Part shown: piece after piece, positions 1-3,000 of the stretch | Layout: each line of letters starts with the position of its first letter | Numbering within the stretch: the stretch's first letter is position 1 | Assembly (NCBI GenBank): GCA_043732185.1 | Contig: JAYTHY010000132.1 | Location: 1-19,667 of the forward strand | Source: Fibrobacteria bacterium | Lineage (GTDB): Bacteria > Fibrobacterota > Fibrobacteria > UBA11236 | Reading direction: 5' to 3' | Length of the DNA stretch: 19,667 bases | Made by a program: the position numbers

Positions 1-3000
1 AAATTTTGATGACCCATAAAATCAACAAATCCCTTGCCTACATTGGCCTACAGGACATTTCGGTCGCTATTTCACCCACTCGATCGCCCGAAGAGCCAAT
101 ATTATTAACCTGCATACACTCCCGCACCTTGGCAAGCCAATCTCTCCTTTTTCACAAATTTAGAAACATTTGGCTTCGCCTTTATGCTGTTCATTTCTTT
201 AACCTGCGAATCCTAGACGTTCCCTTAAAGCTTGTTCCCAAGTTTTTTTGAGGCATTGTGATGGTGTGCACACCTTCCTTTTTCAATTTGGATTTTATTT
301 AATCTTGGAAACGGCGAAAAGGTGTTTTTTGCTGGGGGTTTTTTGGATTGATACGTTGCGGGTCATTTGATTGAACCGCTATGGAAGGGATGGGGGTGGA
401 AGATGGAGAATCGTGGGTCGTTCGTGGAGTTAGTGGGGAGGTATAGGGGTGTTTTGGCGTTGGAGTCTGGGATATCGGTTCATCATCGGGAATTTTATAT
501 CAAGTGGCTGTTGGATTATTTGTTTTTTTGTCGGCCGCGCGAATTGGCTATTTGTGAGTCGCACAACCTTCCGCCATTTACTGAGCATTTACGGAAAAGC
601 GGGAGGCTAGATTTTCAGATTAGGCAGGCTCAGGCTGCGGTGCGCTTGTACTGGATACGGTTTTGCCTATCCGATGAAAATCGTGGAAAAATTAAGGATT
701 CAGTTGAGGGTAGCCTTAACAGTAGAGGTGACGAGAAGCATAGGGATCGTGAACCGGATTCGGATTTGAAGGTGGGCAGGGAAACCAATTCGTTTTCGGA
801 TAATACAAGTTCTGTTCATTCTGGGCTTCCCAGTAGTAGGACCAAGGATCAGGTTGTTGCTTCGCATCAGGATGCGATGAGTTGGCATGTGGAGATGCAT
901 CGATTGCGCATGGAGATTAAGCTTCGTCATTATTCTGTTAAAACCTTGAAGGCGTATGTTTTTTGGGTGCGGACTTTTGCCAAGTATTTGAAAACTCGGT
1001 TGCCGGCGAGTTTGCGTGAGGAAGATGCAAAGAAATTTCTGGTTTATTTAGCGACGGAGGAAAAGGTTTCCGGTTCCACTCAAAACCAGGCTTTTAGTGC
1101 TTTGCTGTTTTTTTATACCAAGGTGCTGAGGCTTGAGTTTCGAGGCTTGCAGGATACGCCCAGAGCCAAATCCAGCATGACTGTGCCTACGGTGCTTTCC
1201 CGGAATGAAGTGCATTCGATTTTGGCGGAACTGGATGGTGTGCACAAAATATTTGCGCAATTGATGTATGGATGTGGGCTTCGGTTGGGTGAGGCTTTGA
1301 CGCTTCGGGTTCAGGATTTGGATTTGGATGCTGGGGGTCTAACTGTTTTTAATGGTAAAGGAAATAAGAGTCGCTGTTTGCCGTTGCCCAAGAAGCTGAT
1401 TCCGGCTTTGCAGATCCATCTTGATGAAATCCGGGTGCTTTGGGAAAGGGATTTGGCGGGAGGGTATGCGGGCGTTGTTATTCAAGATTCACTGACTAGG
1501 AAAATGCCTAATGCCGCTCGGGAGTGGCCGTGGCAGTGGGTTTTTCCTTCAACGCGATTGGTACTGATTGAAGGGGAAGGGAAATTTAGGCGCTTTCATT
1601 GGCATGAATCGATAGTCCAAAAAGAGTTCAAGCGAGCTGCGGGAGTTTTGCAGCTGAACAAACGGGTGACACCACATACGTTACGGCATAGTTTTGCTAC
1701 GCATTTGTTGCAGATGGGATATGATATTCGCACGGTTCAGGAACTCATGGGGCATAACGATGTGTCTACCACCATGATTTATACACATGCCGTACAATCC
1801 CTTTCCGGCAAAGTCATCAGCCCGCTCGATATTTAAAGCGAACCGATTCTTTTAGGGCTCGGCGTCGTACGTATGAACGCCCATGCCCATGCGTTCCTTG
1901 CGTTTTTCCCATGAGTAATAGAACGTTGGCACCACTACCAGCACCAGCAAGGTGTTGAAGAGCAGACCCCAAAAAATTCCCCAGGCCATGGGTGCCCACC
2001 AAAGTGAGGATTCACTTTTCAGTTCGATGCCGAAATTGATAAAGTCGATGCCTTTTCCTGTGGCCATGGGTAGGAGTCCAATCATCGCGGTGATGGCGGT
2101 TAAGAGTACGGGGCGCAGCCGGGTCGCGCCGCCTTTAATTACCGCTTCGCGTAAGGGGGTGCCTTGCCTTCTGAGATGGTTGATGAAGTCGATAAGTACG
2201 ATGCCGTTTTTGGCCACCACACCTGCTAAGGCGATAATACCGATTCCCGTCATCATGATGGCGAAGGTGGTGTGCACGATGAGCAATCCCCAGAAAACGC
2301 CTCCCAAAGAAAGGATGATGCCTATTAGCACCAGGAAAGGTTGTAGCACGGAATTGAACTGGGCCACCATAGTTAGGAACACTAGGGATACGGCGATGAA
2401 GAAAGCGCGTTTTAGAAATGCTGTCGTTTCGTCCTGTTCTCGATTGCTGCTTCCGGACTGTATTTTGTATCCGGGAGGGGCGCTGATTTTGGCGATGAGA
2501 TCGGCGGAAGCTTTCTTCGCTACGCTTTCATCTTTGACACCTGGAGCCATTTCTGCCCAAACCTGGATGGTGCGGTCTCCGTTCAAATGGTTGATTTTGG
2601 CAAGGCTCGCGCCCTGGGTGATACGTACCATTGAGGTTAACGGCACTATCGTACCTTCGTGTGGCACCGTGATTTGATCAAGCCCGGAGAAGGATTCACG
2701 GGTTTTGGGATCGAGTCGGATCATCACATTGTATTCGTCTTTACCTTGCCGGTATTTGGCGGCTTCTATCCCGTGGATGGAGCCTCGCACGGCCATGGCC
2801 ACATCGGCAGTGGTGACGCCCATCAGCATCGCTTGTTCGCGGTCGATATCGACGCGCAGCTCCGGCCTCACGGGCTCATAATCCCAGTCAATGTTGACCA
2901 AGTTTGGAACGGTGCGCAGCTTGGCCTTGATATCCTCGGCCAGCTTGCTCAGCTCGGCAAAATCTTCGCCGGTTACTTCATAGGAAACCGGGAAACCTTG

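Follow-up and report, generated by a model that had tools for sequence, protein, structure and literature searches.

Characterised integron integrases (IntI) are about 320-337 aa long, and to our knowledge all that is understood of the mechanism of integron recombination was learned from enzymes of about 320 aa that have a single core-binding (CB) domain. The chain of VchIntIA in 2a3v, for instance, comprises 320 aa. At attI1, the elements DR1 and DR2 are accessory integrase-binding sites beyond the simple site. For 'complex' tyrosine recombinases, PMC8138268 describes an extra N-terminal DNA-binding module, with which one protomer holds both the core and an accessory site. The same paper attributes two sequential CB domains to RitA ('recombinase in trio'), states that this feature is absent from all other tyrosine recombinases and characterises the integron subgroup solely by an insert in the catalytic domain. 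A large N-terminal fusion left the activity of IntI1 undisturbed, according to PMC2095811. No description of an IntI with tandem CB domains or with a natural N-terminal extension was found in the literature searched, which left subscription journals and supplements outside. The integrase described here has such an extension and is encoded at the beginning of a 19,667-nt stretch from a Fibrobacteria bacterium (contig JAYTHY010000132.1), called the window below.

The open frame at 367..1836 (+) comprises 489 aa counted from TTG. TIGR02249 was matched by its residues 178-488 with 375.7 bits (cut-off 265; model positions 3-313 of 315). Pfam placed PF13495 at 178-257 and PF00589 at 276-475; for residues 1-177 no Pfam match was found at E<=1. 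The alignment with VchIntIA (2a3v_A; E 5.9e-70) runs through the IntI-specific insert (residues ~345-395), which is continuous with a single one-residue gap. R294, H425, R428, H451 and Y460 are invariant among 31 aligned sequences and K322 is conserved in at least 90%. These residues align with the GLRL, GKGxK, HTLRH, GH and IYTH motifs of 2a3v_A, and we take them to be the catalytic R-K-H-x-x-R-H-Y positions of tyrosine recombinases. By all these comparisons the gene at 403-1836 is an integron integrase, intact in its catalytic residues, and an earlier note on this DNA was right to call it bona fide. It is a lone gene with attI and an efflux operon as neighbours; all other tyrosine recombinases of this genome are located on different contigs.

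The earlier note had given 489 aa and about 175 additional N-terminal residues. A frame of that length exists from TTG 367, but comparison with related genes makes ATG 403 the most likely start, which shortens the protein to 477 aa and the extension ahead of the canonical CB domain to about 158 aa. In the genome of the window (G000) and in six relatives (G013, G015, G007, G005, G006 and G012) the start codon lies six codons before the extra N-terminal domain (N-domain), with a purine-rich, Shine-Dalgarno-like stretch upstream. The frame of G015 opens one codon ahead of the ATG equivalent to ATG 403, and the public gene call for the protein (P0152) also comprises 477 aa. The features of the locus are listed in Table 1.

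Table 1 Features of the integrase locus in the window, with the comparisons on which each is based
Position	Strand	Feature	Basis
1..97		Outer end of multicopy ISL3-family insertion sequence (IS); terminal inverted repeat ~72-97, ending ...CGAAGAGCC	Contig-end comparison
97..110	-	attI core box, reads GGTTAATAATATTG; crossover after G (complement of C97)	Comparison with relatives
98..105		Putative 8-bp target-site duplication AATATTAT, inside the conserved attI core box	Five other flank pairs
98..402		Rest of attI and intI leader/putative regulatory region	Repeats; conservation in G013 and G015
403..1836	+	intI gene, 477 aa and stop codon (most likely start)	Start codon comparison, public gene call, TIGR02249
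421..666	+	Extra four-helix N-domain, diverged CB paralogue (residues 7-88 of 477 aa)	Profile, fold, structure matches, dN/dS
667..876	+	Variable linker: short predicted helix, then predicted disordered stretch (residues 102-157, pLDDT <50)	Full-length AF2
877..1152	+	Canonical SAM-like CB domain	PF13495, 82.5 bits; aligns with VchIntIA from residue 10 onward
1153..1833	+	Catalytic domain with IntI-specific insert	PF00589, 127 bits; continuous alignment with 2a3v_A through the insert

Residues ~22-101 of the longer frame had been proposed to form a four-helix, diverged duplicate of the SAM-like CB domain, and repetition of the profile comparisons and of the model bore this out. In hhalign, the profiles of the N-domain and of the canonical CB domain aligned with a probability of 90.45% and an E of 1.4e-6, in register over 59 columns (formerly 84.7%). 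PF13495 was weakly matched by 9 of 17 family N-domains (formerly 5 of 9; best E 7e-4), and no other integrase N-domain family was matched. The N-domain of the window itself reached 13 bits (E 0.14), under the Pfam gathering threshold of 27 bits, so that its homology rests on profile and fold comparison. Predicted alone by AF2, the domain again had four helices (pLDDT 95.6, pTM 0.85). N-domains of tyrosine recombinases filled nearly all of the first 28 ranks in Foldseek, and a second, independent structure search agreed. The domain is predicted to be all-helical and matches CB domains. Along with the similarity at profile level, the predicted four-helix CB fold could be superposed on solved CB domains. 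The match to lambda Int falls on the CB part of that protein (residues 76-155), and the leads from the ESM Atlas were 'SAM-like domain' clusters only. Across 17 family sequences the N-terminal block is alignable, with L12, W29, C37 and A70 invariant. Profile comparison, predicted fold and structure searches thus agree that the SAM-like CB domain has been duplicated and that the N-domain is the diverged copy.

The extension might instead lie outside the protein, as a chance open frame, as a leader that is not translated or as a distinct upstream gene that happens to be in frame with intI. Spurious long frames without the domain do occur upstream of IntI at GC-rich loci of other phyla (L113, L151, L081, L146, L140). 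For the domain described here, however, dN/dS against G015 was 0.134, like that of the canonical CB domain (0.098); the catalytic domain gave 0.034 and the linker 0.60. The conserved start codon with its Shine-Dalgarno-like stretch also argues for a coding sequence. Of the 39 proteins scored as carrying the domain, 37 have it in the same frame as the core, and the indels of the linker (6 and 18 nt only) are all in frame. The high pLDDT of the predicted domain agrees with this. Codon comparison and structure model together show the N-domain to be translated, folded and under purifying selection, and a non-coding extension is close to refuted, with hardly any probability left to it.

The distribution of the N-domain was wider than formerly described. 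A word-based protein search with residues 13-110 again gave 2 proteins, the window's own and one with 80% identity, as the earlier note had counted. This number reflects a limit of sensitivity, since the profile search yielded 2064 cluster representatives at E<=1e-3. The domain was N-terminal in all 150 matches listed of these 2064, and 28 of the 29 longest top matches were IntI. Within the family, the range of 444-598 aa for the open frames of IntI matches was reproduced; the count, given before as 18 of 20, is 17 of 20 for non-self matches and 18 of 21 with the window included. The search for related loci used full-length alignment and covered 2 of 64 parts of the collection. Forty-four of 296 genomes of the window's phylum carried the N-domain, and of 60 above-cut-off IntI matches in this phylum, 54 belong to frames that stay open for 400 aa or more. 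From other phyla, 14 of 80 sampled IntI loci carried the domain. The five GC-rich loci named above had been considered as further cases and were rejected, their upstream frames looking like chance frames. On a tree built from the core only, the N-domain trait needed 6 changes, compared with 31.6 when shuffled. The conservation of the extension in the IntI genes of the family, as claimed before, is retained for the 17 alignable sequences; the scope of the claim was too narrow. By sequence comparison, most IntIs of the window's phylum fall in the extended clade, together with many from sulfate reducers, Nitrospirota and certain Gammaproteobacteria. These results support the N-domain architecture as the mark of a deep IntI clade of Fibrobacterota (probably the phylum of the window), Desulfobacterota and Nitrospirota. 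Some Gammaproteobacteria have a diverged version of it, apparently including a cultured strain, Allochromatium palmeri DSM 15591.

The N-domain is connected to the core by a stretch that varies strongly. Linker length ranges from 9 to 88 aa across 38 homologues, and its dN/dS against G013 was 1.28. In the full-length AF2 model, which has a pTM of 0.51, this stretch is disordered; hence no fixed docking of the N-domain is predicted. We propose that the N-domain may give the enzyme a second DNA-binding module on a tether. With the crossover site held by the canonical clamp of CB and catalytic domain, the tethered domain could contact a further DNA element nearby, either an accessory site in the ~300-bp attI-intI region or extra parts of the folded attC. 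Such binding might raise affinity or specificity for the site, or regulate the reaction or the expression of intI. DNA binding is the function we favour for the N-domain, judging by fold, charge and analogy. Besides the CB fold, it is suggested by the basic character of the domain (median pI 9.3; Arg/Lys conserved at five columns), by helix 4, whose Q-A falls on that of the canonical STQNQA motif in the alignment, and by structure matches to the recombinase-like repressors SroF (9rd5) and MrpR (8a0a), which use the CB fold for DNA binding. The conserved blocks between attI and intI were counted on the same side.

Several observations count against DNA binding. The polar STQNQ motif, which faces DNA in the canonical domain, is mostly replaced, and in 4 of 17 family N-domains the pI is acidic or neutral (5.0-6.9). 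The domain is missing from G023a, a tandem IntI copy within the clade, and from G001b (truncated, with an internal stop), and may therefore be dispensable. The loss of most of the motif and the four non-basic domains would also suit a protein-protein or regulatory module, which might aid or restrain tetramer assembly, recruit a host factor, or keep the canonical CB or catalytic domain covered pending a signal. In synaptic complexes of tyrosine recombinases, contacts between subunits are made by CB domains as well, and a long flexible tether would suit action in trans between protomers. However, the full-length model predicts no confident docking, and the polar positions of the domain that are most conserved are basic. 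A protein-binding role is accordingly possible, yet rather doubtful in our estimation, and the DNA-binding module is kept as the preferred reading.

The region around attI is one place where targets of such a module might lie. In relatives, the attI core continues beyond the crossover with TTAGAC or TTATAC into the first cassette, so that the joined site reads GGTTAATAATATTG followed by TTAKAC. The core is kept in six other genomes of the genus (G013, G015, G007, G005, G006, G012). At the crossover, G013 and G015 have CCGTCTAAC on the one side and AATATTATTAACC on the other; in G007, G005, G006 and G012 the site reads CCGTATAAC up to the crossover and AATA[TA]TATTAACC after it, and the cassette side loses similarity. 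The rest of attI and the intI leader contain a direct repeat, TTAACCTGC (105-113 and 199-207), which with 9 nt could be due to chance in 321 nt. They also contain a palindrome at 263-274, GGTGTGCACACC, and at 291-305 the conserved block GGATTTTATTTAATC. Analogous blocks, GTG..CAC and GATTCTATTTAT, are present in G007, G005, G006 and G012. A scan of positions 1-1000 revealed no sigma-70-type promoter, a consensus that may not apply to the window's phylum.

In G013, in G015 and in two IS-free alleles from the runs X3 and X4, attI adjoins an array of cassettes with attC sites. Pieces of cassette arrays of G000 are located on other contigs, C35, C10 and C76. The earlier note had mentioned, as a conjecture only, a link between the domain and 'giant' sites; the N-domain would then serve the unusually long (~270-nt) attC sites of these integrons. 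Conserved sites of ~270-285 nt, paired at their R''/R' base and with a middle that is very long and branched, do occur on the array contigs of G000 and in the array of G013, and both genomes have an extended IntI. This co-occurrence, however, rests on two close relatives, and by eye the first attC of G013 measures only ~80 nt and another ~135 nt, so that the same integrase serves ordinary sites. A dedication of the N-domain to giant sites is therefore unlikely. With chances well below even, we put forward a more general form of the DNA-binding reading: the whole deep, multi-phylum IntI clade may be heterobivalent, its tethered duplicate CB domain binding arm-like DNA, either within attI or within attC sites of excessive length. 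This would provide a lambda-Int-like choice of sites or regulation that class 1 and Vibrio systems lack, and the arrays of ~270-nt attC sites would be partly invisible to current integron finders.

In the window itself attI is interrupted. The first 97 bases belong to a repeat, of which they form the end, and it is present at 19 further contig ends, all of which diverge past base 97. Ten contig ends share 1-97 and ten more share 72/74-97 only, representing the other end of the IS. The read depth of 1-95 exceeded that of the gene by far (208 vs 13 in X1, 183 vs 12 in X2). Similarity to G013 begins at base 97, where G013 reads ...GGTTAATAATATTG and, beyond the crossover, TTAGACGG; both IS-free alleles break at the same base and differ in their first cassettes. 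The statement that attI is cut by an IS is confirmed by the repeated contig ends, by the homology with G013 from base 97 and by the core kept across the genus. The junction had been described as an end of homology at the G of attI with the IS repeat following; its place at base 97 stands, and this base belongs to both the terminal repeat and attI.

The repeat resembles the ISL3 family. Its terminal repeat begins with GGCTCTTCG, the target duplication comprises 8 AT-rich bp (both features we take to be typical of that family), and G010:C198 has a complete copy of 1.4 kb, identical in its terminal repeat, which encodes a transposase matching PF01610 (DDE_Tnp_ISL3) with 228 bits. In G000 a search with PF01610 gave a 30-position fragment only and no complete IS copy is assembled; beside the ends there is a remnant weakly matching Zn_ribbon_ISL3 (E 0.013). 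Five pairs of contig ends in G000 have reverse-complementary, AT-rich flanks of 8 bp. The partner flank of the copy at attI (ATAATATT and then the crossover) was not found in the assembly, and the duplication given in Table 1 is therefore putative. The data support a multicopy ISL3-family IS abutting attI at base 97 of this genome, where the contig ends in the IS at the crossover. From this arrangement we infer the exact geometry of the insertion and a loss of attI function. The IS would have entered the conserved core box at no more than 8 bp from the crossover, and would separate the integrase-side half of attI, plus any promoter there, from the cassette array. Because of this split, cassette capture at attI is probably disabled in this genome, the intI gene being intact. 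An IS insertion is an ordinary event, yet this one provides a natural example of an integron with a split attI.

Taken as a whole, the locus is best explained by an extended IntI clade, an N-domain that would act as a tethered second DNA-binding module and an attI split by an IS; for this combination we see an even chance. A second CB domain, conserved under selection, is shown here for a large natural IntI clade. If the N-domain binds DNA, cassette capture in environmental chromosomal integrons would gain a further level of site recognition or control. In annotation, real coding sequence should be assumed for the N-terminal part, and the integron subgroup is not strictly composed of a CB and a catalytic domain.

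Compared with canonical IntI (VchIntIA/IntI4, PDB 2A3V; IntI1), residues 159-477 represent a full IntI with R-K-H-R-H-Y and the IntI-specific insert, and the attI of relatives has a crossover of the G/TTRRRY type, followed by cassettes with attC. The protein of the window differs by its ~158 additional N-terminal residues, in which a second CB-like domain is followed by a linker predicted to be disordered. Tandem CB domains are shared with RitA as described in PMC8138268. RitA, however, is of another subgroup and acts as one of a trio of recombinases, whereas intI of the window stands alone with no trio. The conserved blocks beyond the core box may recall DR1 and DR2 of attI1; those elements are bound by further whole IntI1 protomers and not by an extra domain. 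The proposed heterobivalent layout would be analogous to that of lambda Int, whose arm-binding domain is likewise an extra N-terminal module with the function suggested here. In fold the two differ, since the N-domain is predicted to be a four-helix, CB-like bundle, and the integrase of the window would have built its second module from a duplicated CB fold.

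A reading frame of 489 codons is open from a TTG (367..1836, plus strand), and the C-terminal two thirds of its product form an integron integrase. TIGR02249 scored 375.7 bits over residues 178-488 of this frame (cut-off 265), and two Pfam domains were found in the same part (see table). With phmmer, residues 169-475 of the 477-aa form were aligned to residues 10-317 of VchIntIA (2a3v_A) at E 5.9e-70, covering the IntI-specific insert. Among 31 aligned homologues R294, H425, R428, H451 and Y460 are invariant and K322 nearly so. By each feature checked the core belongs to the IntI family, and the earlier note's description of a bona fide integron integrase was confirmed. 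For residues 1-177 of the long frame no match was found in Pfam and NCBIfam, nor for the same N-terminal region in the PDB sequence set. ATG 403 is taken here as the probable start of intI, giving 477 aa, because the frame of the close relative G015 opens one codon ahead of the equivalent ATG and because the public gene call P0152 has this length. Furthermore, a start codon lies six codons ahead of a conserved block in the window's genome G000, its close relatives G013 and G015 and four further species of the genus (G007, G005, G006 and G012), with a purine-rich, Shine-Dalgarno-like stretch 5' of it in six of the seven and a weak one in G015.

Features around intI (nucleotide positions) and Pfam matches of its product (residues of the 489-aa frame)
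Feature	Position	Strand	Remark
IS end	1-97		
attI core box	97-110		
Direct repeat TTAACCTGC	105-113 and 199-207		in the attI-intI region
Perfect 12-bp palindrome GGTGTGCACACC	263-274		between attI and intI start
Conserved block GGATTTTATTTAATC	291-305		between attI and intI start
intI, putative start at ATG 403	403-1836	plus	
RND efflux operon: AcrB-type pump, membrane fusion protein, outer membrane factor, TetR regulator	1852-8172	minus	convergent, directly downstream of intI
PF13495 (SAM-like core-binding domain)	residues 178-257		
PF00589	residues 276-475		

The conserved block was found by translating the frames 5' of the IntI cores in the family's genomes. In 17 sequences it follows the pattern Y..W(L)..YL.FCR ... 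FL..L...GR..FQ..QA..AV..YW, with L12, W29, C37 and A70 invariant. The segment 3' of it is very variable in length and composition, and across 38 homologues the linker comprises 9 to 88 aa. Between G000 and G015 dN/dS (Nei-Gojobori) was 0.134 for the extra domain, 0.60 for the linker, 0.098 for the canonical core-binding (CB) domain and 0.034 for the catalytic domain. G007 and G005 gave 0.11, 0.55, 0.29 and 0.08, respectively, and other genome pairs show a pattern like that of G000 and G015. The linker indels among G000, G013 and G015 are of 6 and 18 nt, with no others; a contig of sequencing run X4 also has an 18-nt linker insertion. The extra domain is shown to be real coding sequence, translated and under constraint. 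A few genomes have the extra domain out of frame with the IntI core, or a stop codon between the two (L101, Desulforhopalus; L145, Deltaproteobacteria bacterium; G101, G293 and G109 of the phylum). Pseudogenes, sequencing errors or genes that are truly split may account for this.

A profile of the extra domains (A1) was compared by hhalign with a profile of the canonical CB domains of the same proteins (A2), giving 90.45% probability and E 1.4e-6 over 59 columns in register (21-79 against 20-79). PF13495 was weakly matched by nine of the 17 N-domains (best E 7e-4), the window's own reaching E 0.14, and none of the 17 matched other integrase N-domain families. The AF2 model of the domain alone has four helices (mean pLDDT 95.6, pTM 0.85). 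Foldseek against the PDB gave no match for it at E<=1e-3; the top 28 ranks are almost all N-terminal domains of Cre/Tre, archaeal XerA (TM 0.76, rmsd 1.9 over 77) and VchIntIA (TM 0.73). The full-length model (N-domain pLDDT 85-94, residues 102-157 below 50, pTM 0.51) describes two folded parts joined by a flexible tether, with no docking predicted. Profile and predicted fold show the extra domain to be a diverged duplicate of the CB domain, as had been proposed; it lies below the Pfam threshold for PF13495.

Of the 20 non-self IntI matches in the family, 17 are in open frames of 444-598 aa. The claim that the extension is conserved in the family's IntI genes stands, but its extent was drawn too narrowly: the domain is widespread and occurs in other phyla, too. 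In the phylum, A1 matched 44 of 296 genomes in 11 of 21 families (E<=1e-6) and IntI exceeded the TIGR02249 cut-off in 53 of 296, the unpublished genome G008 being entered in these tallies as without N-domain and without IntI. Of the 60 above-cut-off matches, 54 are in open frames no shorter than 400 aa. The largest family, where integrons are few, had no N-domain profile match in its 151 genomes. Among 1.84 billion representatives searched exhaustively with the profile, 2064 proteins matched at E<=1e-3, 286 of them at E<=1e-10. The match begins within the first 53 residues in all 150 matches listed, and TIGR02249 was the best family for 28 of the 29 listed with at least 314 aa; 15 of these 28 passed its cut-off, the remaining ones being truncated.

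For other phyla, named genomes were scanned with the full-length alignment in 2 of 64 parts of the collection. Among the best 80 loci, hmmsearch with A1 placed the extra domain 5' of IntI in 14, including Desulfamplus, Desulfonema, Desulforhopalus, Trichloromonas, Desulfobacteraceae, a Nitrospiria bacterium, a Lysobacterales bacterium and Candidatus Thiodiazotropha. A gammaproteobacterial group has a weaker version that keeps GR...WQF.Q..DAI. The group includes Allochromatium palmeri DSM 15591 (L088), which appears to have a diverged form of the domain in the 156 codons upstream of its IntI (E 0.0019, restricted search); as a cultured type strain it could serve for experiments.

On an unrooted FastTree phylogeny of 103 IntI cores, with the columns of the extra domain left out, 6 changes of the trait are required, against 31.6 when shuffled (a count this low was reached in none of 500 shuffles). 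A single clade with support 98 contains 34 carriers, along with three rows scored as non-carriers: G028b, which does carry the domain, the truncated G001b, and G023a, a second, tandem copy. A single gain is likely on this unrooted tree. Tandem IntI genes on one strand were observed at G028:C1:7674-10357, where both copies have the domain, and at G023:C96:4829-7114, where the upstream copy alone has it.

The attI crossover point reported before is well supported. Homology with G013 starts at window base 97; G013 and G015 read CCGTCTAAC before and AATATTATTAACC after the crossover and differ from each other further left. The four further species, with IntIs only ~50% identical to the window's, read CCGTATAAC before and AATA[TA]TATTAACC after it, ~300 nt upstream of their start codons, and likewise lose similarity on the cassette side. 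In runs X3 and X4, two alleles free of the IS break off at base 97 and have different first cassettes. On the cassette strand the site reads GGTTAATAATATTG followed by TTAGAC or TTATAC; GTTAGAC fits the core consensus, GTTRRRY.

Nine further contig ends repeat window bases 1-97 and ten more match only at 72/74-97, a pattern typical of an IS whose two ends share a ~26-bp terminal inverted repeat. All copies end in ...GAGCC, duplicate 8 bp and diverge past base 97 into AT-rich sequence; five contig-end pairs have reverse-complementary 8-bp flanks, which are target duplications. The G000 assembly represents the IS by ends and a remnant only. In G010 an element of 1.4 kb with these ends is complete, and its PF01610 (DDE_Tnp_ISL3) transposase (228 bits) points to the ISL3 family for the IS already noted at attI. 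In run contigs the depth of IS end and gene was 208 and 13 (X1) and 183 and 12 (X2). Four ends of one type and five of the other are unpaired in G000, with no matching 8-bp duplication; among them is the 4.5-kb contig C73, which has the same end type at both sides. Such ends point to rearrangement among the IS copies, or to mixed strains, in this assembly. As the far IS junction was not found in the G000 assembly, we infer the geometry: the IS likely inserted on the integrase side of the crossover, 8 bp away from it, duplicating AATATTAT (98-105). The crossover and 8 bp would lie beyond the IS, the remaining conserved box and the entire attI-intI region on its integrase side. The event itself is ordinary.

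Counterparts of the palindrome and of the 291-305 block (GTG..N..CAC and GATTCTATTTAT) lie at similar distances in the four further species, and the two are candidates for operator and promoter of intI. As function of the extra domain we infer, with the chances about evenly balanced, a tethered second DNA-binding module, its recombination-accessory and autoregulatory variants counted together. This is favoured because a fold of this kind forms the DNA-contacting half of the recombinase clamp, because 13 of the 17 family N-domains are basic (median pI 9.3) with Arg/Lys conserved at five columns, because the helix-4 Q-A is in register with the canonical STQNQA motif, because structural matches include purely DNA-binding regulators of the same fold, and because the attI-intI region has conserved blocks besides the core box. 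The tether would give the domain reach to sites tens of base pairs off. Against the DNA-binding module it counts that four of the 17 N-domains are not basic, that the 9-nt repeat TTAACCTGC could be chance, and that the domain is absent from G023a and the truncated G001b. The main rival, a protein-protein or regulatory role, is rather unlikely.

A link of the domain to giant attC sites, as the earlier note conjectured, is improbable: such sites exist, but the G013 array also has sites of ~80 and ~135 nt. The giant ones, of ~270 nt, lie inside cassette-array repeats of 365-450 nt and 84-89% identity in G000 (C35 ~4181-4451 and ~5155-5420, also C10 and C76) and at G013:C262 ~30915-31200 (L040). 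They read R'' GCATGCAAC, L'' GCCCAGCCAG ... L' CTGGCTGGGC, R' GTTGCAT or GTTAAGC, and fold as long branched hairpins with R''/R' and L''/L' paired at the base (z -8 to -10). Usual attC sites are far shorter, and sites of this length would be missed by finders with a size limit. One very short cassette, which has an ORF of 25 codons (MKPIIFGIRKVYW...) and is nearly identical in G000:C35 ~5490-5575 and G013:C262 ~31274-31350, is followed by an attC starting GTCTAAC. The rest of the window holds the RND efflux operon with its TetR regulator, a sigma-54 two-component pair and exosortase genes. The surroundings of intI are ordinary chromosome, and the system looks like a sedentary chromosomal integron.

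Regarding known systems, the window's IntI differs from RitA, which is ruled out since the trio of recombinase genes is absent, and an arm-binding domain is ruled out by its different fold. In PMC8138268 the integron subgroup is characterised solely by its catalytic-domain insert. According to PMC2095811, IntI1 stays active with a large N-terminal tag; the N-terminus therefore tolerates an added domain. We found no account of an IntI with a natural extra domain at its N-terminus in the literature searched, with subscription journals and supplements outside its scope. The finding is real and larger than first reported: the integron integrases with tandem CB domains are a widespread, apparently undescribed class, represented in G000 next to an attI that an ISL3-family element has split. 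The role of the domain is directly testable.
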